64,000 nt of DNA from IMG/VR virus record IMGVR_UViG_3300045988_142996, positions 3,868 to 67,867 of that record. The stretch is one strand, 5' to 3'. The position numbers and the translations under genes were made by a program. Origin of the DNA: a virus. Shown here one piece after another: positions 5,068 to 62,261 of this stretch (position 1 is the first letter of the stretch; every line of letters starts with the position of its first letter). The notes beneath the pieces are model-generated. The model had not been told where the DNA came from and made no database searches. It worked only from the letters and a program-made list of their open reading frames with translations.

Positions 5068-7191
5068 TCATCCTCCGTTCTTGATGTAACCGATGGCCGA
5101 TTGGACCGCATTCCAGGCTTTTCCAGCCGTGGTAGCACCCGCAGCCAGACTGGCCGTGATGTTCTCTGCCGTGTCGCCGAAGGTGAACTTCTTCTGGTCC
5201 AGCGCATCCAGCGGGATCTCTTCCTTTGTGCACAGCACCCAGTCGTCGATGCCGTGCGGCACACTCCGGATGCGGGTCTTGCGAAGGAATCCCAGCCGGT
5301 CCACGTCCACACCGGCGTCCACAAGGTCACCTGCGTTGATCTTGATGCCACCGGAAAGGCCGCTGTCCTGCTTGTTCAGCTCGGTCTGTGCCGCCTTTTT
5401 CAGTGAGTTCGTGTCCGACTTCTTGCCATCTACAATGATGCAGCGCTGGCTCAGGCCATACAGCTCAATGGACTTTTCGTTGTTCACGGTCACTTCGATG
5501 GGCTTCGTTTTCTCAAATATCCACCAGCCGGTGGTCGTGTAGCCGTATGCCTTCACCGAATTCACGATGGAATACGCCTTCATGTAGTACGAAAGGTCCA
5601 GCAGGTTCGAGCCGAACTCGATGGTCTGCTCCGTAATATCCGGCACATCGCTCAGATAGTCCAGATAGCGGTAATATACCTTCAGGCCGTTTTCCATTTT
5701 GAAAATCTTGCGCAGACGTAAGATCCCGTTGAACTTCTCGACCAGACAGGTATTCAGAGCATCCCAGCAGGTGGTATAGCTCGTCTCATCCTTGTCGTCC
5801 TTCTTGTCGTCCGGCTTCGTCACGGTCACATTTCCCTTCAGGAAAACACGTCCTTCCGTGCGGAAACGGCTGTCCGGACAGGTCGTGGCCAGCGTTACCA
5901 GCTCATCCACCGTGTACACCTTGTTTTCCACCTTGCACGGCATGTCTCCCAGGTACGAGAGTTCTCCGTCGCAGTAGATTTCAAGGTTCAGGTCGTAGTC
6001 CGGCGTCATCTCGGTCACATACCCGCACCAGATCTCCTGTCCGTCCTCTTCCACAGACACGATCGCTTTCTTCAGCTGAAACAGCTTCCGTGCAGGGTTT
6101 GTGACGGGCACTTTGAATGAGAAGCTCCCAGGATCGTTCTTTTCCAGAATCAGGTCGGGTTCCAGTACGAACCGGTCTTCCGTGTCGGCGGCATCGTGCA
6201 GCAGCTCACGCTTGCTCCAGTAATATCCGTTCCCTTTTCCGGTAATGGTACCAACGAATACACGGTAGCCGGAACTTACACTCTTATAAAAGGTATAAGT
6301 CCCAGTCACTTCCGAGCATCCGTCGGTCACTGTAACGGTCACGGTATGGTTTGCTTCGCCTTCCAGCTGGTCAAAGGCTTCCTTTGTCAGTTCAAAGGTG
6401 TACTTCTCGCCGGAATATCCTTCAAAGGTCCGCCATACGTTCCCATCCACACTCTCGGTCACGGTCATCACATCGCCGTACTTGTCTCGGATGCTGTATG
6501 GCAGCTTGAACGGACTCCGCTTTGCGATCACGCTCTTCATCTCGAAGTAGCTGCTGGTCAACTCAGGCACGCACTTGTCCCGCAGAATACCTTCCACGTC
6601 CAGTGTGCAGTCAGCTGAAATGCACAAACATGCCATGACGCCGCAGCTGTCGCGCATCGAACGGTTATCCAGACTGACATTTCCCTTGGTGTCGAGCGAA
6701 AAGTAATAGGCATAGCACTGGTGCGATTCACCATCGCTGTCCTCGTACATTGCTTCGACACGTGTCCAGTAAGTGCTTCCCATCCAGTTTTTCCAGATGG
6801 CGTAGCGTACCGTCGGTTCAAGGAGCGGCCCGGAATAACTGCTGCTGTCAGTATTTAGTTTGAAACCAAATTCCCGATAATGCAGCGCAAACACTTTGTG
6901 TGCTCCTGCATCTCCGAGATCCGTCGATTCCACAAGGTCACGCTGTTCAAGGCTTTGGAGATAGGTACCTTCCAGATAATCCGACAGAGCGCTGCCTGTG
7001 TATGTGTAGTCGCCATAGTAACCGGAATCATTTATGAACTGTCTTGCAGGAAGTCCACTTTGACGGACCAGCAAGGTTTTTCCGGCACTGCGATAGTTGT
7101 GCATCGCCACGATGAAGTTCACTGCCACGCCGCTTTCCCGCAGCTGGATGATGCTCCCGGGCTCCATATCGCCCACACGTCTCAATGTCAT
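5068..7191 (-). CDS. Tail-associated (Tal-like, prophage-tail N-terminal region) protein with an extra N-terminal DUF6273-like module
   Basis: Residues from about 330 onward (LEPDLILEKNDPGSFSFKVPV...IVSVEEDGQEIWCGYVTEM...LEIYCDGELSYLGD) look like a phage minor structural / Tal N-terminal domain. ATG at 7191 lies 4 nt after the TMP stop. Confidence 0.65.
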   Translation of the reverse strand: MTLRRVGDMEPGSIIQLRESGVAVNFIVAMHNYRSAGKTLLVRQSGLPARQFINDSGYYGDYTYTGSALSDYLEGTYLQSLEQRDLVESTDLGDAGAHKVFALHYREFGFKLNTDSSSYSGPLLEPTVRYAIWKNWMGSTYWTRVEAMYEDSDGESHQCYAYYFSLDTKGNVSLDNRSMRDSCGVMACLCISADCTLDVEGILRDKCVPELTSSYFEMKSVIAKRSPFKLPYSIRDKYGDVMTVTESVDGNVWRTFEGYSGEKYTFELTKEAFDQLEGEANHTVTVTVTDGCSEVTGTYTFYKSVSSGYRVFVGTITGKGNGYYWSKRELLHDAADTEDRFVLEPDLILEKNDPGSFSFKVPVTNPARKLFQLKKAIVSVEEDGQEIWCGYVTEMTPDYDLNLEIYCDGELSYLGDMPCKVENKVYTVDELVTLATTCPDSRFRTEGRVFLKGNVTVTKPDDKKDDKDETSYTTCWDALNTCLVEKFNGILRLRKIFKMENGLKVYYRYLDYLSDVPDITEQTIEFGSNLLDLSYYMKAYSIVNSVKAYGYTTTGWWIFEKTKPIEVTVNNEKSIELYGLSQRCIIVDGKKSDTNSLKKAAQTELNKQDSGLSGGIKINAGDLVDAGVDVDRLGFLRKTRIRSVPHGIDDWVLCTKEEIPLDALDQKKFTFGDTAENITASLAAGATTAGKAWNAVQSAIGYIKNGG

Positions 7192-17079: not shown

Positions 17080-18843
17080 TCAGGCAACCTTGTACTCGAT
17101 GGCCATTGCGCTGAAGGGCACAGTCAGTGCGCCGGAGCAGCGGGTCTCGATCAGATACTTCTGCTGGTTGTAGTCGATGTCAAAGTCATCGAACATGTTC
17201 ACGGCACCGCCCTTGTCAGCACCCACGGTGTAGTCGGTCAGGTTGACCACAATGCCAAACAGCTCGCCGCCCTTGGCACCCTTCAGGCCGGCCATCTGGG
17301 GCACGGTCACGATCTCCTTCACACGCATGGCCTGTGCAACCTCTGCCTCGTTCTTGTACAGGCGGTGGCCGATTTTGTCCTCCAGCAGGAGCATGTCGGT
17401 CAGGTTGTCCTCAGTGGTGAACAGGGTCGGGTTGCCGCTGCCCTTGTAGTCCTTGCGGGCCTTCAGGGAAGCATTCATGGCAGCCTTGATCTTGGTCTCG
17501 GTGTCTGCGCCGGAAGCGACCTGGGCCTCCACCTTGATGGTGTAGAAGTCGTCATCGCTCACAATGGGGCGGATGTTGCCCTCGTTGATCTTGTCATCGG
17601 AAGCAGCGTTGCGGCCATCGCCGATCAGGTAGGCACGAGCCAGCTCCTCGTTCAGCTTGGTGCGCATCTCCTGCTTCAGCCAGGCGATCACGTCAAAGCC
17701 GGTGATGTCTGCAATGTCATCGCGGTCCATCTTCTGCTTCTTGTAAACGGTGGTGGGGCTGGTGGAGCGCTTCAGCAGGCCGAACACCTGTTCCTTCTTG
17801 AAGTTGCCCTTGATGTAGCCCTTGGCGCGTGCGTCCTCCTCGGTCAGGTCAGCGGCCATGCTCTTGACGCGGCTGAAGGGAATATGGTGCACACCGCCCA
17901 TGACCTTTGCGACCCAGCTCTGGTCGTTGTCAATGATGCGGGGCGGGTTGTCCAGCAGGTGATCCTCCGGGAACAGCCATTCCACATCCTCGATGCCGTG
18001 GGCGATAAAGGCATCCTTCATACTGCCGCAGCGCTTGCCGTCTGCCATGGCAGCGTTGACCTCATCCATACTGTGCTTCAGCACGCCCTTCTCGTTGTCA
18101 TTGTCGAAAACATTACGCTTCACGGTTTCTTCCTCCTTGTCTGTTTCTGCTGCATCGTCAGTGTCAGAGCCCTTGTTCTTCTTGGTTGCACCGATGATAG
18201 CGTAAACCACATTCTTCTGTTCATCAGTCATACTGTCGAAGACTTCCTTAACGGTCTTCTCATTACCCTGATTTTCAGTAGCATCTGCCATTTTTTCTTC
18301 CTCCTTTTCGTCAGAATGAGTGATCTTTTCTCCCTCATCCAAAGGGTTGTCGTCCGGGTCCAGGCCATGGGTCAGGCTCAGACCACTGTCGGTATAGATC
18401 ATGGCTTCGTAGCCATCATCTTCGTTGTAGTCGGCGCTGTGCTCCACGATCTCGTCGATCAGAGCACCCGGGTTGCATCCGGTCAGCACCAGACTCAGCT
18501 CCCGGATTACGCCATGCATCACCGTATTGCCGGCTTTCTTCAGGCCGTTTGCAAAGATGCTCATGGCATCAATGTCGCCGCAGCGCACCGCTTCCAGGGC
18601 CGTCTTGCCGCTTTTGGTGTCGTTCAGCTTCACATAGGCGTACACGCCATCCTTGCCGCGGTTCTGCAAAAGGGCATGGCCGAGTACATATTCCGGGCCG
18701 GAGTGATTGTGGTTCCACACCACGGGCACCTTCTTGCCGTTGTCGCCTGCAAAGGCGTTCGGCGCAATGGTCAGCCCGTCGTAGCACTTGGTGTTCGCCC
18801 TGGTCGCCCAGCCGGAAAAGTCATAGTCGAACGTCATATTCAT
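17080..18843 (-). CDS. Fusion of HK97-type prohead serine protease (S78) and HK97-fold major capsid protein
   Basis: N-terminus (VPVVWNHNHSGPEYVLGHA...DAMSIFANG...RELSLVLTGCNPGA) is protease-like. An acidic linker follows. The C-terminus (KGYIKGNFKKEQVF...LNEELARAYLIGDGR...TVPFSAMAIEYKVA) is capsid-like. Confidence 0.8.
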   Translation of the reverse strand: MNMTFDYDFSGWATRANTKCYDGLTIAPNAFAGDNGKKVPVVWNHNHSGPEYVLGHALLQNRGKDGVYAYVKLNDTKSGKTALEAVRCGDIDAMSIFANGLKKAGNTVMHGVIRELSLVLTGCNPGALIDEIVEHSADYNEDDGYEAMIYTDSGLSLTHGLDPDDNPLDEGEKITHSDEKEEEKMADATENQGNEKTVKEVFDSMTDEQKNVVYAIIGATKKNKGSDTDDAAETDKEEETVKRNVFDNDNEKGVLKHSMDEVNAAMADGKRCGSMKDAFIAHGIEDVEWLFPEDHLLDNPPRIIDNDQSWVAKVMGGVHHIPFSRVKSMAADLTEEDARAKGYIKGNFKKEQVFGLLKRSTSPTTVYKKQKMDRDDIADITGFDVIAWLKQEMRTKLNEELARAYLIGDGRNAASDDKINEGNIRPIVSDDDFYTIKVEAQVASGADTETKIKAAMNASLKARKDYKGSGNPTLFTTEDNLTDMLLLEDKIGHRLYKNEAEVAQAMRVKEIVTVPQMAGLKGAKGGELFGIVVNLTDYTVGADKGGAVNMFDDFDIDYNQQKYLIETRCSGALTVPFSAMAIEYKVA

Positions 18844-18894: not shown

Positions 18895-20163
18895 TCATAT
18901 CCTGCTGGCCGCGGCCCGAGCCAGAAGCCGGTCCACCGTTTCCTTGCCGCCTGCCATGGCGGTATTCTGCGCCTCTTCCGGGCTCTGGTTCAGGTTCTTG
19001 TTGCTCAACTCATCCGCACGCGGGTCTTTCGAGGGCTTCAGCCCGATCACCTGCCGGAACTCGTTGGAGCTCATGATCTCGTTGCGGGTAAACTTGTCCG
19101 CCATCTCGGCCACCGTACCAATGGGTGCCAGCTTGAACGGGTCACGGAAGAACAGGATGCTCTGGCCTTGACTTCTTGCGGTCTTGGTCAGGAACTTCCG
19201 CTTCATCTCGTCCACGATCGCGCTGATGATAGGCTCCACGATGCGGTTGTAGTAGTTGGTCATCGCCGCCTCGTCCGCTGTCCCGTTCATGATCTCGATG
19301 GTAATACCCAATTGACTGTAAAACATGTTCGTCAGGTATTCGATCTGCTTCAGAAGGTTGTTTTCGAGGCTGCGATTCAACTGCGTCACCCGCTCGGTGC
19401 CGTCCGTCCACGCAATGCCGTATTTCGAGTCCCGGAGCTGCTCTTCGATCTCCCGCCGGCGCTTGTTTGCCTGCTCTCTGCGGGCTTCACTCTTCACCAC
19501 ATAGGGCAGCTGAATGATCAGGTCCAGCTTTCCGGCACCGGCCTGCTCGTCTACCACGTCCAGAAGGCTCAGCTTCCGGATCAGGCGCTGCATCGTGCTG
19601 TTCGGCTCGTTCATAATGGCGTAGAACGGGTTCTCGATCAGCGCCACGGTCTTTTTCGGCAGAACCAGTTCTTCCTTCTGGCCGGTCCGGTCGTTGTAAA
19701 GCCGCACCCGTACGTGTTCGGGGTACCATTCCAGCACCTTACCCACCCGCATGGAGTAGATCTTGTAGCCACTGCTCTTGCTGGGGTCGTAGTCCGCTTC
19801 CACCGGCACCACGGCCACCACACCCTCGTCCAGCATGCTCATCACAATGTCCTGAATGAGCCCCCGCCCGGTCTGGTCGATGTTGGCTTCTAAATTCAGG
19901 CAAGAATTAAGGCCCGAATCGATGACCGAATCAAACCGGCCATTGTCATCGAGCCTTACATGCTGTATCGTGATGGCGCTGCAGTCCATCGAAATGCGGT
20001 TGTATACGCTGGTCACAAAAGTGCGTTCGTTGCCACGCGTCAGCCGCACCCGGTCAGGCCGGTAGCTGTACCCGCCTGCATATCCTCCAAAGTTCGGGGG
20101 AGGGTCCCGGTTCAGAAAAGCGTTCCAGGCGTGCTTCAGCCGGGAACCAAGATTCATTTCCAT
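18895..20163 (-). CDS. Portal protein
   Basis: About 422 aa, between the terminase region and the protease-capsid gene. ATG at 20163 (MEMNLGSRLKHAWNAF...). Portal family not determined. Confidence 0.7.
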   Translation of the reverse strand: MEMNLGSRLKHAWNAFLNRDPPPNFGGYAGGYSYRPDRVRLTRGNERTFVTSVYNRISMDCSAITIQHVRLDDNGRFDSVIDSGLNSCLNLEANIDQTGRGLIQDIVMSMLDEGVVAVVPVEADYDPSKSSGYKIYSMRVGKVLEWYPEHVRVRLYNDRTGQKEELVLPKKTVALIENPFYAIMNEPNSTMQRLIRKLSLLDVVDEQAGAGKLDLIIQLPYVVKSEARREQANKRRREIEEQLRDSKYGIAWTDGTERVTQLNRSLENNLLKQIEYLTNMFYSQLGITIEIMNGTADEAAMTNYYNRIVEPIISAIVDEMKRKFLTKTARSQGQSILFFRDPFKLAPIGTVAEMADKFTRNEIMSSNEFRQVIGLKPSKDPRADELSNKNLNQSPEEAQNTAMAGGKETVDRLLARAAASRI

Positions 20164-20198
20164 TTTGAATTTTCCCTTCCTCAAAAGCGCAGGAGTGG

Positions 20199-20657
20199 TT
20201 AAACCAGCATGCTACGATCATAGCGTTCGCTGGTTACTTTCATAACTGCCGAGATTGCTGTAGCGGCCATTCCTTTTTGAATCACTTGAGAATCAACAAT
20301 GTTTTTTCCAATTTTTGTCACGGCTCCATAGTTATTGTAGAGCGTATTGATGGTTCCAAGTGCCGTTGCTGCTGTTCCTGCAATCCCGATTGCCTGCTTA
20401 ATCCTATCTGGTTTTGCAATCAAGGATTCATACTGTTTTTCTTTTTGCAAACGGTTGATTTTTGCATTAAGCTCCGAATCGCTCAATTCTCTGACGCTCT
20501 TTTTCTCGTGTGCGTGGGTATAGTCAGGGTGGTCATTCTGCTGATATCTCTTTTTGCCTTCTGCTGTTAAGCTGCCATCCTTATTCTGATAGCGTCGGGC
20601 ACCCCACTTCTGACCTTTGATGCCCCAATGATAAAGTTCATCATTATATATGGTCAT
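20199..20657 (-). CDS. Small protein with an N-terminal ELYHWGIKGQKWGARR motif and a C-terminal glycine-zipper hydrophobic segment
   Basis: AAAGGAGG lies 6 nt before the ATG at 20657. Motif at residues 6-22; LSDSELNAKINRLQKEKQYESL helix; IGIAGTAATALGTINTL hydrophobic stretch. Confidence 0.7.
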   Translation of the reverse strand: MTIYNDELYHWGIKGQKWGARRYQNKDGSLTAEGKKRYQQNDHPDYTHAHEKKSVRELSDSELNAKINRLQKEKQYESLIAKPDRIKQAIGIAGTAATALGTINTLYNNYGAVTKIGKNIVDSQVIQKGMAATAISAVMKVTSERYDRSMLV

Positions 20658-20726
20658 ATTCCACCTCCTTTGCCGATAAACAAAAAGCGCACCAGCAATG
20701 AAGCTGATGCGCTCTGTCAAAAGTAT

Positions 20727-20933
20727 TTACGGGATAATATCCAAAATGGACTCGCACATTTTTCCGATTTCGTTCGGGAAATAATTGTCATCCAGACCTC
20801 GGTATTCAAGTTCGTCGCCGACCCGCTCTTCGATATCCGCCCATTCATCAGAAAAATCATTGATTTTAGTATAATCGTAGTTGAGCCCCAAACTTCTTAA
20901 AAACTCAATCTGTTTCTCGGTAAGCATACTCAA
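20727..20933 (-). CDS. Small acidic protein, candidate immunity/antitoxin for the upstream toxin-like gene
   Basis: 68 aa with about 17 D/E versus 6 K/R by my count. Its start abuts the stop of 20934..21422. Confidence 0.55.
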   Translation of the reverse strand: MSMLTEKQIEFLRSLGLNYDYTKINDFSDEWADIEERVGDELEYRGLDDNYFPNEIGKMCESILDIIP

Positions 20934-21422
20934 TCACCTTTTCGTGTATTTTCGGATTGCGTCATGCCCTGTTTTCCAAACAGTTGTGATGCACCCGTTC
21001 TCTGGATTTACATTTACCGTTGCGTACTGTCCAATGAATCGCTGGCTTGGCTGGCCTTTTTCATTGTAGCGTACTTTTATTTTATCAGCATTTAATGGCT
21101 TTTGCAATGCATCCAGCATACCGTCAAGAGTAACCTGTCGTGTTTTATCCTGTGTGCGAGCCAAGGCATGAATCGAGAGTCCTTTTACAAGTACACCATT
21201 TGATGTATAGAACGGTTTTCGGAATTTCCGTGCCGCTCGAGCCTCAATTGAATACCGATCATGCTCAAGCTGCTCTTTCGTTCTCCGCACACCCCACTTC
21301 ATACCCTTAATGCCGTAGTGCCACAGCTCTTGAGTACCATCAGTCCATCTCCACATTTGGTGGCATCCTCTTTCTATCTGTTCTATTGCGTTTGTAACCA
21401 TCCACGTGTTATACTTATTCAA
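20934..21422 (-). CDS. Toxin-like protein: N-terminal ELWHYGIKGMKWGVRR motif plus a C-terminal DUF4258/RelE-like (BECR-fold) domain
   Basis: C-terminus LSIHALARTQDKTRQVTLDGMLDALQKP...GQPSQRFIGQYATVNVNPENGCITTVWKT follows the H-x3-R-x3-R ... G-x-(I/V)-T-(V/W) pattern of DUF4258-type RNase toxins. The start codon is uncertain (TTG at 21422 or ATG at 21401). Confidence 0.55.
   Translation of the reverse strand: MNKYNTWMVTNAIEQIERGCHQMWRWTDGTQELWHYGIKGMKWGVRRTKEQLEHDRYSIEARAARKFRKPFYTSNGVLVKGLSIHALARTQDKTRQVTLDGMLDALQKPLNADKIKVRYNEKGQPSQRFIGQYATVNVNPENGCITTVWKTGHDAIRKYTKR
21386..21415 (+). promoter_or_regulatory. Sigma-A-type promoter for the plus-strand two-gene cassette
   Basis: TTGCGT (21386..21391), 18-nt spacer, TATACT (21410..21415), about 45 nt upstream of the ATG at 21463, which has a GAGGAGG RBS. 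Confidence 0.45.
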
Positions 21423-21462: not shown

Positions 21463-22518
21463 ATGTCCGATTCCGAAATGCTTTCCACTCAGTCTTCCAG
21501 CTGCGAGATCACATTATGTGATATTCCACTGGACTTCGGCGATGCAATGCGATTCCATAAAATTGAATTTCCTGAGCAAGCCGGACTTGCGGCCAACTTG
21601 CTTCTTCGGCTTGTTCCTGCTGAACTCGCAGTGGGGGCAGCATCGAGCACCTATGTTCTTCGGTTTCCAAAAGGTATTCAGGGTTCTCTTATGAACTTGC
21701 ATCAGGGTGGACAGTCTACCGTTATGAAGGATGCTACCGGACATTTTGTAGGAACTGCATCGTTATATCGCACTGATCCGGTATCACTGGCAACTTTCCA
21801 GGTGTTTAGCATTGCATCTTTTGCGACAGGACAGTATTTTCTTGCAGACATCAGCTCAAAACTCACCGAAGTCAATAAGAAGCTAGATGACCTTCTTGCA
21901 TTTCTGCAGACCTCAAAGCGCACAGAACTTCTCTCCGAGCTGACGTTTGTGAAATATGCATTGGCAAATTATTCAACGATTATGCTTAATGATGCTCAGT
22001 GCATTGCAACGATTGGAAATCTTCAGCGTGCAAAAACCAAAGCGATTGCTGATATAGAGTTTTATACCGAGCAGCTCGAGAGTGCAGTCGCTGGCAAGTC
22101 GAATGAGAGCCAAGCTCAAATTGTTTTGCAGAATAAGCAGGGGGTTGATCTCGCCTCTCAACTTTATGCTATCAGCGGAATTATGGAAACCTACTATTCA
22201 CAAAATTGGAACGAGTCCTATCTTGCAAATATCAAAGCGGATGCCAAACCTCTTTTCGCTCTTACGCAAAACCGCATGATTGGTGCTTTGAGAACATTCT
22301 CTGATAAGGTGACCAAAGAGCTTGAGGCCCGGAAGAAAAATCCTCTTACTAAAAACGAGGTTTCCAAAAAAGAGTGCGAAGTTCTGCGAGTATGTGACGC
22401 TCTAAATTCTCAAGCTGAATCTCCGCTTCTTATTTTGATGACGGATGCTCTGAATAAGCCTTCAAGGGAAACAGAGCTTTATCTTCGTCCAGACGGTAGT
22501 GTCTACCAAAAGATTTAA
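21463..22518 (+). CDS. Hypothetical 351-aa protein, gene A of the plus-strand moron (helical, one hydrophobic helix)
   Basis: Strong RBS. It runs opposite to the whole structural operon. N-terminal LVPAELAVGAASSTYVLRFPKGIQGSLMNL...; hydrophobic FQVFSIASFATGQYFL; long helical remainder. No family recognised. Confidence 0.75.
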   Translation: MSDSEMLSTQSSSCEITLCDIPLDFGDAMRFHKIEFPEQAGLAANLLLRLVPAELAVGAASSTYVLRFPKGIQGSLMNLHQGGQSTVMKDATGHFVGTASLYRTDPVSLATFQVFSIASFATGQYFLADISSKLTEVNKKLDDLLAFLQTSKRTELLSELTFVKYALANYSTIMLNDAQCIATIGNLQRAKTKAIADIEFYTEQLESAVAGKSNESQAQIVLQNKQGVDLASQLYAISGIMETYYSQNWNESYLANIKADAKPLFALTQNRMIGALRTFSDKVTKELEARKKNPLTKNEVSKKECEVLRVCDALNSQAESPLLILMTDALNKPSRETELYLRPDGSVYQKI

Positions 22519-22550
22519 TCATCGTGAGGAAAAATAGAAAGGAGCATTTC

Positions 22551-23084
22551 ATGACTGTCGTTTGTCCCAGCTGCGGAAAGAAACTTCAAGTTCTCGATGA
22601 CAAACCAACGAATGGAAAATGCGGAAGTTGCGGTGTCTCTTTCACCGTTGAGTACACGGCTGACGAAACCGCCATTGTTTCAGTCAAGACAGAAAAGACA
22701 TTTTGGGAAAAACATCCTAAAATAGCTAAGGGCTTCGCAGCTGTATTGGGAGTTGGCTTTTTAGCCGGTGTGACTTGGCTTGCCGTCAAACCTAAAATCG
22801 ACGAGTTCGCCAATGATTCTCCCATAGTAGAAGACAATCAGTCTGATACAGCCCCCACTGCCACTTGCGTTGAAGTTAATAATGACAAGGCGCAGGATGA
22901 TGCCACTTATGAGCAAAAAGAAATTCCTGTAAGCGGTGGCAAAGTGAAACTATCCGGAAATCGTCATGCATCTCAAAAGAAACGTGAAACAGCTGCTGAA
23001 AATGGTTATGCAGATTTAGCACCCGATGAAACCTGGCGTGTTCCGTCAACGAGGGTTATTGAAACCCCAGTCAAAGAATCTTGA
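22551..23084 (+). CDS. Zinc-ribbon plus single-TM membrane protein, gene B of the plus-strand moron
   Basis: CPSCGKK...CGSCG zinc ribbon; TM segment GFAAVLGVGFLAGVTWLAV; low-complexity C-terminal tail. AAAGGAG 7 nt before the ATG at 22551. Its stop abuts the TerL stop. Confidence 0.7.
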   Translation: MTVVCPSCGKKLQVLDDKPTNGKCGSCGVSFTVEYTADETAIVSVKTEKTFWEKHPKIAKGFAAVLGVGFLAGVTWLAVKPKIDEFANDSPIVEDNQSDTAPTATCVEVNNDKAQDDATYEQKEIPVSGGKVKLSGNRHASQKKRETAAENGYADLAPDETWRVPSTRVIETPVKES

Positions 23085-24830
23085 TCACTCAAACGCATCC
23101 CGGTTATTCTTATAAGCTACATACGCATCCATCATAGCGGCAACCGCATCGATCTTCTGATCATACCTCTGTTTCAGAAGCTTGCGGTTGCCGTTTGTGT
23201 CTTCCAGGGTAATGCAGTTGCCCATAGCAAATTGCATCAGTTGCTCGTCAAACAGCAGTTTTCGCTGTTCGCTCAGCTTCTTCAGCTCGCCCAGCGGCAC
23301 GCTCTCTGTCTTTGCGCCCTGGATCACCTTCTCGATGGCATACTCGCCGTTCTCTCTGGCCCATCGTTCCACAAAGTCCTTTGCGTTATAGGGGTCGTAG
23401 CCGAAAGACCGTACGTCGTACCCGCTGTTCTCGATAAAGTGGTCAAGGTCGTCGTACACTTCCATCATGTCCAGCACGGTGCCTTCCAGCACCACAAGTG
23501 TTCCCTCCCGCATGAACTCGTCATACTTCTGCCGCATTGCAATGGGCAGCTTCGAGAGGGTGTAGCTCGTAATGTAGTCCCTCGTCTTCACGCCGAAATA
23601 TCCGTGCTCCATCGGGAACAGGAAGGTAAACGCGCAAAAGTCGTCGCCCTGGCTGAGGTCTGCGCCCATGCTGCACGCCATCTGCCAGAAGTCCCGGTGC
23701 CGGTGCGGCAGGGTCTCCTCGTAGGGGAAGAAGTAGGTGTAACCCTCCATCGGGATGCCGAAGCGCTTTGCCAGGATGTCATTCCGGCTGGCAGGAGCCT
23801 TCTCGGCGCGTTCAACGTCCAGCTGGTAGGCTTCGTAGCTCACTGTGGCTCCCAGGTTCGGGTTCGCCTTCACCCACATGCTGGGGTCATTTACCTCGTC
23901 GATGCTGTCCAGCTTGTAGTACCAGATGGACACATGCGGGTTCACATAGTCGCCCTTCAGGATGCTCATCAATTCCATTTTGATGTCGTCACCGCAGCCG
24001 TTGCGCACCGTGCCCTCGCTGCTGGTGGCTACGATCAGGTAATCCTCCACCTTGCAGCTACCCTGCTCGATAGCGCCAATGGGGTCTTCCCGGATGGGGC
24101 ACGAGAGCCATTCATCCACTGTGGCCACCTTGTCTCTCCGTCCCTGCAGCTTGTCGATGCTCATGGGGCGGATTTCCAAAAGGCTGTTGGTCAGGAAGTT
24201 CTCGATGCCCTTCTTCGTGCTGGCCAGCTTCACCCGCGCCGACTGGGAGCCGGTAGTGTTCTGCATGCTGCCTTCGGTCATAAAACGGTACAGCGGACCG
24301 CGGCTCCGCGCCAGTGCCGTGCGGATGGGGCTCAGCACCTCTTCCGCCTGCTTCATGGTGGGAGCCGTCGTGATCTGTTGCGTCGTGTGTCCGTCCACTG
24401 CAAGGAAGTATTGCTGGATGCAGCTGTCGTAGATGCTCTTTGCCGCGCCTCGTGCCACGATCAGATACTGCTTGCGGACAAGGCGGTGCTTGATGCGCTT
24501 CTGGATGTACCTGCCGCCATGGCCGTCGGGGTTGGGCTTGTAGATGGTGCGTTCTTCAAAGTAGTACCATCCGAAGATTTCCTCCGCCCATAGCTTGAAG
24601 GTGTCCAGCAACTTCATGTCACTGCCGTCGGTCAGGGTCAGTTCCCGTTCACAGAACTTCACAAAGCCATCCATGGCCTTGTCGTCGTAGTAGATACCCG
24701 GATTTGCGATAAGATCATCGATCCGGTTCATCTCCATGGAGATTTCCCTGCAGACAGGAATTTCGCCTCGCAGCACGGCCTCCCGGAAACGGCCGTAATA
24801 TTTTGGCGTAGCCGTGTTCGAGAGTGCCAT
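23085..24830 (-). CDS. terL: Terminase large subunit (Terminase_1-like)
   Basis: 581 aa. ...RKQYLIVARGAAKS (Walker A-like)... and a C-terminal nuclease-like half. Typical size and position. Confidence 0.85.
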   Translation of the reverse strand: MALSNTATPKYYGRFREAVLRGEIPVCREISMEMNRIDDLIANPGIYYDDKAMDGFVKFCERELTLTDGSDMKLLDTFKLWAEEIFGWYYFEERTIYKPNPDGHGGRYIQKRIKHRLVRKQYLIVARGAAKSIYDSCIQQYFLAVDGHTTQQITTAPTMKQAEEVLSPIRTALARSRGPLYRFMTEGSMQNTTGSQSARVKLASTKKGIENFLTNSLLEIRPMSIDKLQGRRDKVATVDEWLSCPIREDPIGAIEQGSCKVEDYLIVATSSEGTVRNGCGDDIKMELMSILKGDYVNPHVSIWYYKLDSIDEVNDPSMWVKANPNLGATVSYEAYQLDVERAEKAPASRNDILAKRFGIPMEGYTYFFPYEETLPHRHRDFWQMACSMGADLSQGDDFCAFTFLFPMEHGYFGVKTRDYITSYTLSKLPIAMRQKYDEFMREGTLVVLEGTVLDMMEVYDDLDHFIENSGYDVRSFGYDPYNAKDFVERWARENGEYAIEKVIQGAKTESVPLGELKKLSEQRKLLFDEQLMQFAMGNCITLEDTNGNRKLLKQRYDQKIDAVAAMMDAYVAYKNNRDAFE

Positions 24831-24918: not shown

Positions 24919-26046
24919 TTACCGCTTGTCCTGCTGGGCCAGCAGCTGGGTCTCGGTCAGCAGTTCGGCAAGGGTGGGGTAGTGGTAGCCGGTGAGCCAG
25001 ATCTCTACGGTGTAGCCGCCGGTCGACGTTTCTGTTGCAAAGTGCAGGGTCCCGTTTGTCTGGAAAGTCGTGTTGGATGCGAAAATTCCAGTGCCATTTC
25101 CGTAGTTATGATTGGCGGTGCAGCCTTTTGCAATGTCTACTTCCTCGCCGTACCCGCCGGTACTGCTGTTATATTTCGTCTTGACGTGCACGTAGTCCAG
25201 GCCGTCTGGCATTTTGATATCGTAGGTCTTCCACCTTTTTCCGGTTTCTTCGTAGTGGTTCCACACCAGCCGGGGCTCCGACTTTACCGCCACGGCGGCA
25301 GCGATCTTATCATTGAGGGTCTTGCCGCTGAGGGTGCCGTCCGGGGCAATGTCCAGATAGTCGCCCACCTTGACGCCGCCCAGCTGGGCCGCCGTGGCGG
25401 CAGGCAGGGCGCACTGCTCTGCTGCAGACAGCGTGCCGTCAGGGGCAATATTCAAGCCAGTTCCTACTTTAACGCCGCCCAGCGTGGTTGCCGTGGCGGC
25501 AGGCAGGGCGTACTGCTCTGCTGCAGACAGCGTGCCGTCAGGGGCAATATTCAAGCCAGTTCCTACTTTAACGCCGCCAAGCGTGGTTGCCGTGGCCGGC
25601 GGCAAGGTGTAGGGCGTAGTACCCACGGCCAATGGTCCAAATGCCATTAAAAGGTCCTCCCTTATGATGTAATAGTATGCAGCCAACGCCGCCGTGGGGA
25701 TATGCTTTGCTCGCAAACGGAGCACGCCGGGCAGACTTTCAGAGCTAGAGAGAAAACATGCTGTCTCTGCGACATTTTGACCTGCCGGAGTAATTTCGAC
25801 TGCCACCACATCGTTCTCCGTCAGACCAGAGACAGGGATGTCCACATAATATGGATAACCATAATCCCCGTCTTGCTGCCAGCCTGTGGTCGGGATGGTG
25901 AAAGCAGTAAGTGCAACCTTATCTGCCTTGGCCTTGTCCAATGCTGAAACTGCACCAGACACAGTGACCGTCAGCGTGCTCAACTCCTGCAGCACTCGCT
26001 CCGAAACATCTCGCAGGCCGGCCAGAATGGTCTGAAAGCTACTCAT
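24919..26046 (-). CDS. Fibre protein with three LGGVKVG-x-GL-x-IAPDGTLS repeats
   Basis: 375 aa. The tandem 33-aa repeats (LPAATATTLGGVKVGTGLNIAPDGTLSAAEQ) are typical of phage fibre proteins. Confidence 0.75.
   Translation of the reverse strand: MSSFQTILAGLRDVSERVLQELSTLTVTVSGAVSALDKAKADKVALTAFTIPTTGWQQDGDYGYPYYVDIPVSGLTENDVVAVEITPAGQNVAETACFLSSSESLPGVLRLRAKHIPTAALAAYYYIIREDLLMAFGPLAVGTTPYTLPPATATTLGGVKVGTGLNIAPDGTLSAAEQYALPAATATTLGGVKVGTGLNIAPDGTLSAAEQCALPAATAAQLGGVKVGDYLDIAPDGTLSGKTLNDKIAAAVAVKSEPRLVWNHYEETGKRWKTYDIKMPDGLDYVHVKTKYNSSTGGYGEEVDIAKGCTANHNYGNGTGIFASNTTFQTNGTLHFATETSTGGYTVEIWLTGYHYPTLAELLTETQLLAQQDKR
25327..25611. repeat. Tandem 99-bp repeat, about 3 copies (two nearly identical), inside the fibre gene
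   Basis: ctgctctgctgcagacagcgtgccgtcaggggcaatattcaagccagttcctactttaacgccgcc recurs at 25414 and 25513 (period 99). Confidence 0.9.
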
Positions 26047-26049
26047 TGA

Positions 26050-26994
26050 TTATGCCTCCGCAAATACCTCGTCCAGCATGGCCTTCACCTCGGCGGAAGT
26101 TGCCAGGACCAGGCCATCGAGCTTGGTCTTATCGGCGGCAGACATCAGACCTGCATTGGTAGCAGTAGCCTCGCCATAGGAAACGAGAGGCTGCCAGGTG
26201 CCATCGCCACGCAGGAACTTACCCTGTGCCCCGGCAGGAGGTGCGGGTACCAGACCGTTTGTGCCAGCAGCAGAAGACGTTGCACCGCTCATGGGAGAAT
26301 AGGTAGTATTGGTGCCAGGAATGCCCAGACCTGTAATATCCTCCTTCGTCACCGGCGCAACTTCGGTAACATGACCGTAGGCATCCACCGTCACCTTGTA
26401 CAGGCCGCTGCTTCGTGCCGTATAAGTCGGATGGGTGTACTTGTTTGCACCCTCGGCAATCCCGGCCAGCTTGGCACTCTCAGCATCGGTCATCAGACGC
26501 TTGCCGTTTTCTTTCTGCACATAACCGCTCAGGTCAACGGTGGTGTCGTCCAGCTGCTCCATGGTGTAGCTACCGTTTGTGCCCTTGATCTTGGCGTAGA
26601 TGTCGTAGTGCTTGGTCTTGGGGTTCAGCACCAGGTACATCACGTTTTCGGTGGCACTGTCCACACCGGGTACGGTATCAACCTTCTGGAAGCTGGCATG
26701 GCCAGTCTTGGCGATGGCCGTCTGAATAGCAGATGCCACCTGTGCGCTGGTCTGCCAAGAGCTATCATTGGTCAGCTGACTGGTCTTGGTGGGCACGGTA
26801 ATATCCACAGCCTTGGCGTTGACTGCCTGTGCCTGACCATTGACCTTGATGGTCTCGATGACGTTTGCCTGACCACCTTTGTTTTCCAGAGCCTTCACGC
26901 GTGCCTTCAGTGCTTCGTCTCTTGCTTTCTGGCGATTTGCCAGGTCCTGAAGGTCACGCAGTTCAGGAATATGCGATAAATCGTAAGTTGCCAT
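26050..26994 (-). CDS. Fibre / head-fibre-like structural protein
   Basis: 314 aa. N-terminal coiled coil, SQLTNDSSW motif, GLVPAPP...KFLRGDGTWQ, NAGLMSAADKTKLD. C-terminal ATSAEVKAMLDEVFAEA tail. Confidence 0.7.
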   Translation of the reverse strand: MATYDLSHIPELRDLQDLANRQKARDEALKARVKALENKGGQANVIETIKVNGQAQAVNAKAVDITVPTKTSQLTNDSSWQTSAQVASAIQTAIAKTGHASFQKVDTVPGVDSATENVMYLVLNPKTKHYDIYAKIKGTNGSYTMEQLDDTTVDLSGYVQKENGKRLMTDAESAKLAGIAEGANKYTHPTYTARSSGLYKVTVDAYGHVTEVAPVTKEDITGLGIPGTNTTYSPMSGATSSAAGTNGLVPAPPAGAQGKFLRGDGTWQPLVSYGEATATNAGLMSAADKTKLDGLVLATSAEVKAMLDEVFAEA

Positions 26995-27470
26995 TAGTCT
27001 TCCTCCTTAAAAATCTCATCCAACATTTCTTTTACTTCTTCGGCACTTGCAACCCGGATGTTGATTCCGGCCACTTCTCTCACAAATGCCTCCCACGCCG
27101 GTGTTCCGGGCCGAGGAAGCTGTCCATCTTCTGTTCCACTATTTGCAGCAACAATATACATGAGGTCCGCACTGGTGATCGTCACACCGTCACCATCGGT
27201 CCCCTCGAAAGTGCATACGCCCTTTCCTGCATTTTGTGTCACGATATCCGGAACGTCAACGAACCCATCCTTTACCAGGGATGTCCCCAGCGTTTTCCCA
27301 CATGCAGTATGCCAACAGACCCGCACAGTAAGGTTCTCCCATTCACCACGAGGGTCTATGGCAAGACGGTAAACTCCACGATTTCCGGCGTATCCGAGTG
27401 CCAAAGCAATCGTATTGCCGGGCGGTTGGGCCGTCCCATTTGAGCGCAGCGTGACAGCAAGATCTATCAT
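26994..27470 (-). CDS. Hypothetical structural protein sharing the C-terminal SAEEVKxMLDExF tail
   Basis: The ATG at 27470 follows the upstream TGA by 4 nt. Ends ...RVASAEEVKEMLDEIFKEED. The longer ORF-track start (27707) overlaps the upstream gene. Confidence 0.6.
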   Translation of the reverse strand: MIDLAVTLRSNGTAQPPGNTIALALGYAGNRGVYRLAIDPRGEWENLTVRVCWHTACGKTLGTSLVKDGFVDVPDIVTQNAGKGVCTFEGTDGDGVTITSADLMYIVAANSGTEDGQLPRPGTPAWEAFVREVAGINIRVASAEEVKEMLDEIFKEED

Positions 27471-27474
27471 GTCG

Positions 27475-28791
27475 TCACCCCTTTTGCTTAATATCCGGTT
27501 CCAACAAGACAACGGCGATCGTAAGCTCCTTTGTCGGTTTTGTTTTCGACCAGAACTTAAGTGCGCCATCCAACGCCTGACAGGTCCCATATAGGCCTGC
27601 TGCGATCGCAGATGGGACATCGTCCGGCTCGACAGTTGCGATCGGAACCAGAAACGCCGTGCATTCCGCTTTTTCGAGCGTACAGGAATATGCGGCATCC
27701 GAATCACTTTTGCTCCACCTCGTCACGGGGATCTTCACAAGTTGTGAACCGATAACCCCTCCGTTATAGGAGGTTGTGATGCTGTCCAGCAGTTTGACTA
27801 CGTTCGTTTCGCTGGTCTTTGCAGCATTTGCGCTGGTGGCGGCTCCCGACTCACTCGCCTTTGCGGCGGTTGCGCTAGATGCAGCCTCGGCGGCACTGCT
27901 CTGAGATGCCGTGGCACTGGAATTTGCTTTTGTCGCACTGCCAGCGGCATTTGTCTCGCTGACTTTAGCCGCATCGGCACTGGTAGCCGACTCTGTTGCC
28001 GAGTTCTTTGCGTTCTTCTCTGACGACTCCGCAGCGGTTGCGGCTTCGGTAGCAGCATTGGCGCTGGTAGCAGCATTTGACTCGCTAACTTTAGCGGCTT
28101 GCTCACTACTCGAAGCGGCAGTTTGACTGACCTTTGCCGCACGGGCACTGGTTGCCGCTGCTTCTGCGCTTGTGCCGGACGAATCTGCGTAGGATTTTGC
28201 GTTCCGCTCGGCATTGGCGGCTTCGGCAGCACTTCGTGAAGCAGCCGCTGCTGCATCTTCTGCCCCGGTCACCAGCGTACCGGAATAGATCATCAGGTCG
28301 TTCTTCAGATGCGTCAGATAATCCACAATCTCCGGTATATCCCCACCTTCGTAGGGTTCCAAACCTTCAAGCACAGTTCCTGCGCCGAGGGTGGTGTGGT
28401 AAGCCTTCTGGACGACCCCGTCGACATCCGTCATAAAGCAGTTCACCACGAACAGAACGGTTCCTTTAACCATCGTAGCATCTGCGGCCACGGTCCAGAT
28501 AAAGCAGAAGCTGTCAGTCTCCACGGTCTTTTCCGTTACCGTAAAATAATTGATGTCGCCGTCCGCATTCTGGTAGTTGATCCTGATGCAAAATTCGGAC
28601 AAGTCAGACCCATGATAAAAGCGATTCATCCGGAACCGCACGCGGTTCACATCCTTGTCTCCTTCTACGCCCAGAACAACGCCTCGTTCAGGAACGGTGA
28701 TGATACGCAAATGCTCGTCAATGATGAACGAAAGCTCGTCATCGCATCCTGCCTGATTTGCTGATTCCAGCAGCTCGTCAATACTCGCCAT
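27475..28791 (-). CDS. Fibre/baseplate protein: BppU-N-like N-domain plus a long Ala/Ser-rich coiled coil
   Basis: N-terminus LRIITVPERGVVLGVEGDKDVNRVRFRMNRFY.... About 150 aa of (A/S)xxAxxSxxxA repeats follow. ATG at 28791. Confidence 0.7.
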   Translation of the reverse strand: MASIDELLESANQAGCDDELSFIIDEHLRIITVPERGVVLGVEGDKDVNRVRFRMNRFYHGSDLSEFCIRINYQNADGDINYFTVTEKTVETDSFCFIWTVAADATMVKGTVLFVVNCFMTDVDGVVQKAYHTTLGAGTVLEGLEPYEGGDIPEIVDYLTHLKNDLMIYSGTLVTGAEDAAAAASRSAAEAANAERNAKSYADSSGTSAEAAATSARAAKVSQTAASSSEQAAKVSESNAATSANAATEAATAAESSEKNAKNSATESATSADAAKVSETNAAGSATKANSSATASQSSAAEAASSATAAKASESGAATSANAAKTSETNVVKLLDSITTSYNGGVIGSQLVKIPVTRWSKSDSDAAYSCTLEKAECTAFLVPIATVEPDDVPSAIAAGLYGTCQALDGALKFWSKTKPTKELTIAVVLLEPDIKQKG

Positions 28792-58389: not shown

Positions 58390-59565
58390 ATGGTCTGTGT
58401 CGGAATTGATGTTGCCAAAGATAAGCATGACTGTTGCATTCTCGATTCGGAAGGAACGACCCTTGTCGATTGCTTTACCATTCCCAACAACATGGATGGT
58501 TTCAAAAGTCTGCTACAAACAATCCAAGACTGTTCTCAAAAATCAGACAAAATAAAAGTAGGGCTTGAGGCTACCGGACATTATAGCTACAACATCCTTG
58601 GGTTTCTTCTTGACAATGATCTGCCCGTCTATGTCATGAATCCCTTGCATACCAACCTGTATCGAAAGAGCCTCAGTCTTCGCAAAACTAAAACCGATCG
58701 TGTGGATGCAAAAACGATTGCAACTATGCTGTTGTCCGATGTAGACCTCAAGTCCTACACAGATACAGCATATCACAACGAAGAACTAAAGTCACTCACG
58801 AGATACCGATTTGATAAAGTTCAGGAACGCGCTAAACTAAAGCAGTCGGTGTCCAGATTGGTTACAATCCTGTTTCCGGAATTGGAACAGCTTGTTTCGT
58901 CTATCCACGGCACTTCAATCTACGCACTTCTCAGTGAGTATCCCGGTGCAAAGCAGATTTCAGAAGCTCATCTGACCAGATTAGCTAATATTCTCGTGAA
59001 AACATCCAGAGGCCATTACCGAAAAGATAAAGCTACTCATATCCGAGATGCAGCCAGAATATCCATTGGTTCTGTTATGCCTGCTAAGTCTTTGGAATTA
59101 AAGCACACCATTAAGCTCATTCAAGAACTTACCTCCGAAATCAATGAAATTGAAGATGCCATTCGGAAAATCATGGATGAATTGAAACCGCCGATCCTTT
59201 CGATTCCCGGAATGGGATTTCATTCTGCTGCGATGATTCTTGCAGAGGTAGGGGATTTTTCGAATTTTAACTCTCCTGACAAAGTTTTGGCTTATGCTGG
59301 ATGTTCTCCCTCCACATACCAGTCAGGAAAACTCACAAACTGCTATGCACACATGGAAAAGCGTGGCTCTCGTTATCTTCGATACGCTCTTTACACTGCA
59401 ACCAAATACGTCTGTTACTGGAATCCTGTTTTTACTGAATACCTTACCAAAAAGCAAGCTGAAGGCAAGCACTACAATGTTGCCCTATCTCATGCCACAA
59501 AGAAACTCGTACGACTGATTTACGCTTTGCAGAAGTCCGGTAAAGCATATCTTGCCGTCACTTGA
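58390..59565 (+). CDS. IS110-family (DEDD / RuvC-like) transposase
   Basis: MVCVGIDVAKDKHDCCILD... (DEDD_Tnp_IS110 N-terminus) and ...IPGMGFHSAAMILAEVGDFSNFNSPDKVLAYAGCSPSTYQSGK (Transposase_20 domain). Confidence 0.9.
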   Translation: MVCVGIDVAKDKHDCCILDSEGTTLVDCFTIPNNMDGFKSLLQTIQDCSQKSDKIKVGLEATGHYSYNILGFLLDNDLPVYVMNPLHTNLYRKSLSLRKTKTDRVDAKTIATMLLSDVDLKSYTDTAYHNEELKSLTRYRFDKVQERAKLKQSVSRLVTILFPELEQLVSSIHGTSIYALLSEYPGAKQISEAHLTRLANILVKTSRGHYRKDKATHIRDAARISIGSVMPAKSLELKHTIKLIQELTSEINEIEDAIRKIMDELKPPILSIPGMGFHSAAMILAEVGDFSNFNSPDKVLAYAGCSPSTYQSGKLTNCYAHMEKRGSRYLRYALYTATKYVCYWNPVFTEYLTKKQAEGKHYNVALSHATKKLVRLIYALQKSGKAYLAVT

Positions 59566-62016: not shown

Positions 62017-62261
62017 TCTTCGCCCCTCCATTCGTAGCCTGTCTGCTCGAAAAGAAGCTTCGGCGAAATATAATAATTGATTCTCCCGTATTTTGAGCTC
62101 ATTTCCTTGAGATCGGTCACGCGCCTGCCGTTTCTCGTGGCCTCCCCAATCGGCAGCCATCCGGCAATGATACCAGCTCTCACCCATGCCGGATCACGTC
62201 CGTAGACCTTTGCTGCCACCCTCACTGGAACAGCACCCAATTTTAACCTAGCTTTGTCCAT
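62013..62261 (-). CDS. HTH DNA-binding protein (excisionase/Xis-like or early regulator), first gene of the minus-strand array
   Basis: 82 aa. ...VPVRVAAKVYGRDPAWVRAGIIAGWLPIGEA... is an HTH_17/Xis-like pattern. Divergent from the integrase. Confidence 0.45.
   Translation of the reverse strand: MDKARLKLGAVPVRVAAKVYGRDPAWVRAGIIAGWLPIGEATRNGRRVTDLKEMSSKYGRINYYISPKLLFEQTGYEWRGEE

Follow-up and report, generated by a model that had tools for sequence, protein, structure and literature searches.

Between the genes for the terminase TerL and the portal protein, a 64,000-nt window of viral DNA (IMG/VR record IMGVR_UViG_3300045988_142996, positions 3,868 to 67,867) carries three small minus-strand open reading frames (ORFs), correctly placed there by an earlier reading made from the letters alone. 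We take the first two, ORF1 and ORF2, with high confidence for a toxin plus immunity pair, judging from homology and gene linkage. Near its N-terminus ORF1 bears a copy of DUF7211 (Pfam PF23847), a 25-position family of unknown function; ORF3 bears another, and comparison across phages makes it quite likely that a polymorphic effector family is united by DUF7211 as its common module. On balance we favour an explanation in which ORF1-ORF2 is a phage polymorphic-toxin cassette whose DUF7211 handle would bring the toxin into the phage head for delivery. The features of the cassette and of ORF3 are as follows:

20934..21356, minus strand: ORF1, 140 amino acids, isoelectric point (pI) 10.2; DUF7211 tag plus putative C-terminal BECR-type (DUF4258/Ntox49-like) domain
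21276..21329, minus strand: DUF7211 motif of ORF1, residues 10-27, LWHYGIKGMKWGVRRTKE (Pfam match)
20937..21224, minus strand: toxin domain of ORF1, residues 45-140 (alignment and profile search)
20727..20927, minus strand: ORF2, 66 amino acids, pI 4.05; candidate cognate immunity protein
20684..20715, minus strand: terminator-like hairpin in the 69-nt gap between ORF2 and ORF3; 13-bp stem with 7 G-C pairs and a T-rich tail
20199..20657, minus strand: ORF3, 152 amino acids; core-type DUF7211 protein
20586..20648, minus strand: DUF7211 motif of ORF3, YNDELYHWGIKGQKWGARRYQ (Pfam match)

Toxin domain and partner gene

ORF1 most likely starts at ATG 21356, nine nt after GAAAGAGGA, and its homologues, 139-141 amino acids long with MWRW at the N-terminus, agree with the 140-residue model. 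For ORF2 the most likely start is ATG 20927, with a ribosome-binding site, AAAGGTGA, that overlaps the TGA stop of ORF1, and its homologues match the length of 66 residues. The sequence-only reading had given these genes 162 and 68 amino acids, values that are replaced here, and ORF3 the 152 that it keeps (ATG 20657, preceded by AAGGAGGTG). The ATG of ORF2 lies in the reading frame of ORF1, two codons past its TGA (20925-20936), an arrangement that is not conserved in the Faecalibacterium prausnitzii copy (L004) described below.

ORF1 consists of the DUF7211 tag, a short helical linker and the C-terminal toxin domain. Its AlphaFold2 (AF2) model has a mean pLDDT of 82, reaching about 90 in the C-terminal domain, where helices H62-68 and H77-85 are followed by a four-stranded sheet. 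Residues H63, R73, T125, W127 and T129 (140-residue numbering) are invariant in 25 diverse sequences, and the invariance of the first two fits the signature 'H, [KR]' given for Ntox49, among whose trafficking modes MuF is listed (Zhang et al. 2012, PMC3482391). DUF4258 overlaps Ntox49 and is placed in the Colicin-like branch of BECR (bioRxiv 10.64898/2026.08.28.747851). Among the 48 ORF1 relatives, 18 match DUF4258 (best E 1.1e-4) and two match PBECR2. The top Foldseek matches in the PDB, at scores weighed below, are BECR toxins: the CdiA-CT of E. coli NC101, an archaeal RelE and a colicin-type RNase. Foldseek also matched longer phage proteins (E 2.5e-8) among the predicted viral structures of BFVD and, at E 5.6e-3, a Microbacterium phage Honk protein of the DUF4258 family.

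A profile of the ORF1 domain, searched against 1.84 billion representative sequences, returned 1181 of them at E up to 1e-3, with 666 at E up to 1e-10. The domain is C-terminal in every one of the matches, including those in which it ends a Phage_Mu_F, Phage_min_cap2 or portal-MuF protein. Among the best 150, 48 are at least 300 amino acids long and 13 bear the DUF7211 motif. Pfam scans of ten profile matches found Phage_Mu_F or Phage_min_cap2 in nine, one of them a portal-MuF fusion. The profile search and the Pfam scans thus place the C-terminal domain of ORF1 among the MuF polymorphic-toxin domains (Jamet et al. 2017). Together with the DUF4258 matches of the relatives and the AF2 model, these MuF-borne copies support the earlier assignment of ORF1 to the DUF4258/RelE-like BECR toxins. 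Homology to DUF4258 is plausible, with ORF1 itself lying outside the curated model, and related MuF-fused proteins score 19.9 and 23.5 bits against it, under its 25-bit cut-off. ORF1 is described here as a putative RNase.

Three short proteins (P0154, P0162 and P0164) carry the same C-terminal toxin domain without DUF7211; their N-termini have other short motifs (NPxHDxxGRFT; GNANSGRYPRGSG), which may be further small handles. In P0054 the first ~65 residues of a Phage_connect_2 protein are fused to a DUF7211 toxin.

Next to the basic ORF1, ORF2 is strongly acidic, as the earlier reading had it (net charge -11.5), and a Pfam scan found in it no family and no DNA-binding domain. An ORF2 homologue directly follows 18 of the 19 ORF1-type genes, the exception being a 72-residue fragment, and homologues down to 41% identity retain W29, an IEE triplet, G37, C58 and P66. 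This linkage of toxin domain and partner holds across handles. In one phage (L095) the gene directly after the portal encodes a MuF protein with an ORF1-type domain at its C-terminus, and the next gene encodes a 59-residue ORF2 homologue (LNDLQIKFLQKIGV...VIEEAVGDYL...CESILDYI); in another (L098) the toxin domain is likewise on a MuF protein after the portal and the next gene encodes a homologue of 65 residues. The two phages are unrelated, and theirs are the two MuF-fused copies with downstream sequence to inspect. A cognate immunity gene is expected to accompany its toxin domain even where the N-terminal handle is a different one, and the linkage thereby lends support to the immunity role first proposed for ORF2, which would consist in neutralising ORF1. 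In one relative (P0060) a natural in-frame deletion fuses toxin and partner; modelled by AF2 with an alignment limited to eight toxins, the toxin part folds well and the partner forms two helices.

The hairpin downstream of ORF2 would close off ORF1-ORF2 as a separate cassette. Terminator-like sites in the region are not more frequent than in shuffled sequences, and the case for this one rests on its quality and position. A promoter-like site inside ORF1 (21079-21107, minus strand), with TTGCAA and TAAAAT separated by 17 nt and an extended TG, precedes ORF2 by about 150 nt and could allow toxin-independent expression of ORF2; such sites, too, are no more numerous in the region than in shuffles.

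The toxin-partner pair is also found in an element of F. prausnitzii GCA_047022515 (L004; gene at 6001-6632), where the toxin is 69% identical. In this and two similar cases (L005 and L006; metagenome contigs) the pair sits in an integrase-bounded element beside spo0A that has many small genes. A 12.4-kb stretch holds one DUF6353 gene in L004 and three each in L005 and L006, and L004 also encodes XkdX, an M15 peptidase and a holin. Head genes are absent within 6 kb of the pair in all three, and the element is perhaps a prophage that has become defective, or else a satellite dependent on the capsids of a helper.

The DUF7211 family and its core member

Against a gathering score of 27 bits, ORF1 matches DUF7211 at 40.4 bits (E 1.9e-10) and ORF3 at 27.3 bits, which bears out the earlier remark that ORF3 repeats the N-terminal motif of the toxin. 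DUF7211 is matched by all 48 ORF1 relatives, across which the motif residues H, G, K, K, W, G, R and R are invariant. In the AF2 model of ORF1 the pLDDT is below 50 at residues 1-6 and 10-21, spanning most of the motif; the tag is thus predicted to be disordered on its own and appears to behave as a short linear motif, not as a folded domain. Literature searches for DUF7211 and for the motif string returned no relevant paper, the Arthrobacter and Gordonia phage papers make no mention of a repeated motif, and the effector family is apparently undescribed.

To obtain an unbiased sample, we used the peptide pattern as the sole criterion in a scan of IMG/VR, which gave at least 600 matching stretches; 454 of these passed confirmation, and 80 loci were retained for the survey. 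Hidden Markov models (HMMs) were built for four head genes (connector, TerL, portal and protease-capsid fusion) and used to annotate all loci. This head module is present in 77 of the 80, together with one to six DUF7211 genes per locus (median 2). Where both TerL and portal were found (65 loci), every one of the 185 DUF7211 genes lies on the TerL strand: 110 in the TerL-portal interval, 74 upstream of TerL and one after the portal. The tag is confined to the head module, and 198 of 214 ORFs have it within their first 40 residues.

What follows or surrounds the motif is far from uniform: the non-motif parts of 253 ORFs cluster into 75 groups, most of them singletons. The largest, with 117 members from 79 of 95 sources, includes ORF3, and the cluster containing ORF1 has 19 members; each phage has one core member and up to seven others with unrelated variable regions. 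Pfam searches with one representative per group found Ntox50 (E 1.1e-19), Gln_amidase (papain-fold toxin 1, Tox-PL1), GNAT acetyltransferases and LigT; the survey member bearing Ntox50 was looked for and not pinned down. In L084 the TerL-portal interval holds a DUF7211-Gln_amidase fusion, a member of a group of eight, followed by an overlapping 84-residue ORF, a candidate immunity gene only, and in L018 a GNAT fusion stands in the same array as an ORF1-type toxin. Searches with phmmer and five single MuF regions found no MuF relatives in the 95 DUF7211 sources, a weak negative given the limited sensitivity of such queries. The 'different, much shorter handle' of the sequence-only reading therefore stands as an architecture, with DUF7211 on at least 75 variable regions; its part in delivery is a proposal, taken up below.

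The motif is also present in phages of Actinobacteria, and the hosts seen are Faecalibacterium, Lactococcus and several actinobacteria. The recurrent gene order is Phage_connect_2 connector, DUF7211 gene(s), TerL, DUF7211 gene(s), portal and protease-capsid fusion. In Lactococcus phage 1706, gp06 is the connector and gp07 (462 amino acids) has two DUF7211 stretches. Rhodococcus phage ReqiPepy6 (L011, 406-9696) has the motif in gp013 and in all seven TerL-portal genes (gp015-gp021), an eight-gene array that is the largest seen. Of the five motif matches in Streptomyces phage Scarif, four fall in the TerL-portal interval and one precedes TerL, and the same layout is found in Arthrobacter phages GoCrazy and Ingrid and Gordonia phage Eddiemania. 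ReqiPepy6 gp013 (L011 442-2037) and Eddiemania gp15 (L012 3936-5624), both directly upstream of TerL, combine an N-terminal LigT/2H phosphoesterase ('RNA ligase') with DUF7211. All of these phages are in the Actinobacteria-Firmicutes supercluster for which a conserved block of connector, TerL, portal and protease was described, with DUF7211 genes not listed in it (bioRxiv 10.1101/842583). GenBank labels 1706 gp07 and ReqiPepy6 gene019 'structural protein', and a PHROG named 'virion structural protein' matches the tag; these are database labels and names, unconfirmed. From these distributions the family seems to be encoded only around TerL and portal of one lineage (1706, FP_oengus and actinophage clusters), marked by the protease-capsid fusion and the lack of MuF. 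Small terminase subunits, often encoded just upstream of TerL as DUF7211 proteins are, were considered as an identity for the family and rejected in view of up to eight paralogues per phage, several with toxin or enzyme domains.

ORF3 is of the core type. It matches phrog_32444 at E 1e-53, is ~70% identical to AUV56562 of Faecalibacterium phage FP_oengus, and has 2165 relatives at 90% clustering, none of them named beyond 'DUF7211 domain-containing protein'. The core consensus runs from the tag through a loose 'n..G.lt..gkk' stretch (QNKDGSLTAEGKKRY in ORF3), a variable spacer and a second helix motif to an Ala/Gly-rich tail; the helix motif is (L/M)SDxEL...INRLxLExQY, given for ORF3 as LSDxEL...INRLxxExQY. 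The tail of ORF3, previously called a glycine-zipper hydrophobic C-terminus, is Ala/Gly/Thr-rich and only weakly to moderately hydrophobic, its best 19-residue Kyte-Doolittle mean of 1.12 lying below the usual transmembrane threshold. Nor is ORF3 the second cargo that had been suggested, being of the type found in most sources and the sole DUF7211 gene at the FP_oengus position. It is best read, on its conservation, as the lineage's minor head-module protein and not as exchangeable cargo, and by analogy it may be a functional counterpart of MuF/gp7. A holin-like membrane protein was also considered, as the actinophage core gene follows the lysin; this identity is not supported, given the weak hydrophobic segment and the annotation of another gene as holin in ReqiPepy6, 1706 and Eddiemania.

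Genome context of the cassette

The following features surround the three genes:

23085..24830, minus strand: TerL (Pfam TerL_nuclease and TerL_ATPase; phrog_9), upstream boundary of the island
18895..20184, minus strand: portal (Pfam Phage_portal; phrog_12), directly downstream of ORF3
17080..18843, minus strand: prohead protease (S78)-major capsid protein fusion (Pfam/PHROG), hallmark of the DUF7211-bearing phage lineage
29548..29901, minus strand: Phage_connect_2-type connector gene (HMM E 1.9e-45), here 4.7 kb upstream of TerL
21463-22518 and 22524-23084, plus strand: two opposite-strand genes, ORF351 and ORF186, between TerL and ORF1 in the same low-GC island
361-1605, with a second copy at 62483-63727 (redundant ends): tyrosine integrase, 414 amino acids

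Positions 1-1878 of the window are identical to 62123-64000, and identical ends over 1878 bases mean that the window wraps round a genome of 62,122 bp, circular or terminally redundant, of an FP_oengus-like phage. Synteny with FP_oengus is accompanied by identities of 78% for TerL, 64.6% for the portal and 60% for the capsid fusion; the host phage is an FP_oengus-like temperate Faecalibacterium phage of the gut. An IS110-family transposase gene (DEDD_Tnp_IS110 and Transposase_20) lies within the phage genome at 58390-59565 on the plus strand.

The TerL-portal interval of FP_oengus has homologues of ORF3 and of the opposite-strand ORF351, and lacks ORF1, ORF2 and ORF186. Since ORF1 and ORF2 are both missing there and ORF3 is present, the pair is an accessory insertion beside a backbone gene. 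Over 20.2-23.1 kb the G+C content is ~45%, against 55-58% in the flanks. Within this island, ORF351 is 51% identical to FP_oengus AUV56561 with no family assigned, and ORF186 combines a zinc ribbon at its N-terminus with a hydrophobic segment. Neither PADLOC nor Pfam gives an assignment for these two, which lie outside the toxin cassette and may be lysogen-expressed morons; run on all five island genes, PADLOC returned no defence-system match. In agreement with the earlier reading, Pfam found no MuF domain in ORF1-3 or their neighbours. No usable match came from sequence searches of the PDB in which ORF1, its family profile, the connector and the capsid fusion served as queries.

In related phages, DUF7211 genes usually have the connector gene as their neighbour on the upstream side. 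Between connector and TerL the window has fibre-like protein genes (24919-27707, minus strand), an unusual place for such genes; one of the proteins has repeated ATATTLGGVKVGTGLNIAPDGTLSAAEQ units and a Phage_head_fibr match, and the FP_oengus equivalent of the region consists of one 693-residue protein and two small genes.

Proposed delivery, competing explanations and known systems

In the explanation that we favour, the DUF7211 tag would dock its bearer to a conserved head component, be it the portal, the connector, the capsid interior or the packaged DNA, and a few copies would be shut inside the capsid and reach the next host cell together with the DNA. Once inside that cell, ORF1 would cut RNA, which would assist host takeover or harm cells without ORF2; in the producing cell ORF2, translationally coupled to ORF1, would block the toxin. 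Docking to a head component or to DNA is a putative step, and for capsid loading and injection of DUF7211 proteins we lean slightly towards doubt. We speculate further, with clearly more doubt than belief, that DUF7211 could be a self-sufficient capsid-loading peptide of ~25 residues for one HK97-fold lineage (1706, FP_oengus and many actinophages), with encapsulin cargo-loading peptides and the T4 capsid-targeting sequence as proposed analogues. Any protein bearing such a peptide would be packed into the head and brought into the next host, and these phages would have at their disposal as many as eight exchangeable effectors for injection (RNases, deamidase, acetyltransferases and RNA-repair enzymes).

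Several points weigh against a head-loaded toxin cassette. The presence of DUF7211 proteins in capsids, and their injection, would have the database labels given above as sole virion hints. ORF1 itself has no DUF4258 match at E up to 1 (cut-off 25 bits), and its fold matches in the PDB are weak (E 0.1-1, TM about 0.2-0.3). In the P0060 fusion the partner reaches a pLDDT of only 65-79, and the AF2 output carries no interface information. DUF7211 is mid-protein in some cases, such as the LigT fusions and 1706 gp07, and with the LigT enzyme N-terminal to it the tag is not strictly an N-terminal leader. The L004 pair, with no head genes nearby, indicates that the cassette can persist away from the head module. 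Many DUF7211 phages, 1706 for example, are presumably virulent, and the role of the family may therefore differ from that of MuF toxins.

ORF1-ORF2 could instead be an intracellular toxin-antitoxin (TA) or abortive-infection moron that is never packaged and whose toxin acts solely in the producing cell, in prophage maintenance, exclusion of rival phages or the timing of lysis, with DUF7211 in an unrelated role. This account, which we regard as unlikely, draws on the compactness of the two-gene unit with its terminator-like hairpin, on its place inside the low-GC island, on the occurrence of the pair away from head genes in L004 and on the count of DUF4258 among RelE/ParE type II toxins (Gerdes 2025, PMC11980606). 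The same source, however, lists DUF4258 in antitoxin-toxin order, whereas the toxin gene comes first here; a type II antitoxin gene usually lies upstream and has a DNA-binding domain, whereas ORF2 lies downstream and has neither such a domain nor any Pfam match. Moreover, the toxin domain and the partner family also occur with MuF and minor-capsid proteins, the cassette is on the strand of the late head genes, the tag is confined to head-module genes and PADLOC defence models are unmatched. Alternatively, DUF7211 proteins might all be head assembly or ejection factors, analogues of SPP1 gp7 or lambda gpW, scaffold-like or binding DNA ends, with incidental enzymatic domains and a motif that serves morphogenesis as an interaction or DNA-binding element. 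The core ORF3-like type, adjoining connector, TerL or portal in 79 of 95 sources and endowed with a second conserved helix motif, speaks for such factors, as do the many basic and aromatic residues of the DUF7211 motif and the GenBank 'structural protein' labels; yet 75 unrelated variable regions would be left unexplained, some of them known polymorphic-toxin domains (Ntox50, Tox-PL1 and the MuF-shared BECR domain), as would the tightly linked acidic partner gene, and for the whole family we find this improbable. For ORF3 alone the assembly-factor reading may well hold, and it is compatible with a toxin cassette at ORF1-ORF2.

Type VII secretion is associated with Firmicutes and Actinobacteria. 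Phages of these two phyla harbour the family and the motif has a W-G pair, as would suit an export signal for cellular secretion (e.g. type VII-like) with which lysogens would secrete toxins against competitors. A motif of 25 residues that is predicted to be disordered is nevertheless not the ~100-residue helical hairpin of WXG/LXG proteins, secretion genes are not nearby, and the DUF7211 genes sit in a late head operon, including that of 1706, which we take to be virulent. Even with the type VII-linked prophage polymorphic toxins mentioned for Mycobacterium abscessus (PMC7953293), we consider a secretion signal very improbable.

Phage polymorphic toxins have so far been tied to MuF, and this locus points to a second, much smaller handle, which hundreds of effector genes carry in phages of gut Firmicutes and in well-sampled actinobacteriophage collections. 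If the tag loads capsids, this would explain a recurrent unannotated gene block between terminase and portal, supply a short peptide for loading chosen cargo into phage particles and lengthen the list of injected proteins, including RNA-repair enzymes able to counter host anticodon nucleases; the LigT-DUF7211 fusion, if virion-borne, would act as an RNA-repair enzyme, one potentially able to oppose host tRNA nucleases. If it does not, the toxin and immunity genes still make a clean pair, and Pfam DUF7211 gains a defined family.

Among known systems, the DUF4258/Ntox49 toxins share with ORF1 a small alpha+beta domain, an invariant His in the helix before the sheet and a conserved Arg; ORF1 differs in falling below every curated threshold and in a partner that is neither Imm22 nor any other Pfam family, and its locus is toxin-first whereas DUF4258 TA modules are antitoxin-first. 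T4 internal proteins are packaged via a short N-terminal capsid-targeting sequence, to which DUF7211 has no sequence relation. With PBECR-bearing polyvalent proteins (Iyer et al. 2017, as cited in bioRxiv 10.64898/2026.08.28.747851) our proposal has in common that a phage packages enzymes, BECR RNases among them, in its head and delivers them with the DNA; each DUF7211 effector is, in contrast, a separate small gene with the same tag and not part of a giant multi-domain protein. The core ORF3 type adjoins the portal as does SPP1 gp7, a MuF-type minor head protein, and may fill the gp7 niche where MuF is missing, although ORF3 has no sequence similarity to gp7, is 152 residues long with a weakly hydrophobic tail and is known from sequence alone.

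The closest parallel is with MuF polymorphic toxins, which are reported only from temperate phages, typically with a single muf gene, and have Ntox50 among their toxin domains (Jamet et al. 2017, PMC5576092); 'phage DNA packaging system' toxins were described by Zhang et al. 2012 (PMC3482391). The traits of polymorphic toxins recur here: a conserved region joined to diverse domains (75 variable-region clusters among 255 DUF7211 ORFs), toxin domains shared with other families (the ORF1 domain on MuF and Phage_min_cap2 proteins, Ntox50 and Gln_amidase/Tox-PL1 on DUF7211 proteins) and a downstream immunity gene that travels with the toxin domain (18 of 19 genes, and both MuF-fused copies). In both systems, genes of the head module join a conserved handle to C-terminal toxin domains that can be swapped, both are common in gut Firmicutes and both include Ntox50; a small immunity gene lies directly downstream, as with ORF1-ORF2, and MuF/minor-capsid-protein-2 proteins share the toxin domain of ORF1 and the partner family of ORF2. 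The DUF7211 system differs in having no MuF domain and a handle of 25 residues instead of a domain of at least 100 residues in a protein of at least 300, in its one to eight paralogues per phage, in its position before the portal on either side of TerL instead of after the portal, and in occurring also in presumably virulent phages such as 1706. The toxin domain and its logic are, in sum, those of MuF polymorphic toxins, whereas handle, copy number and gene position differ.

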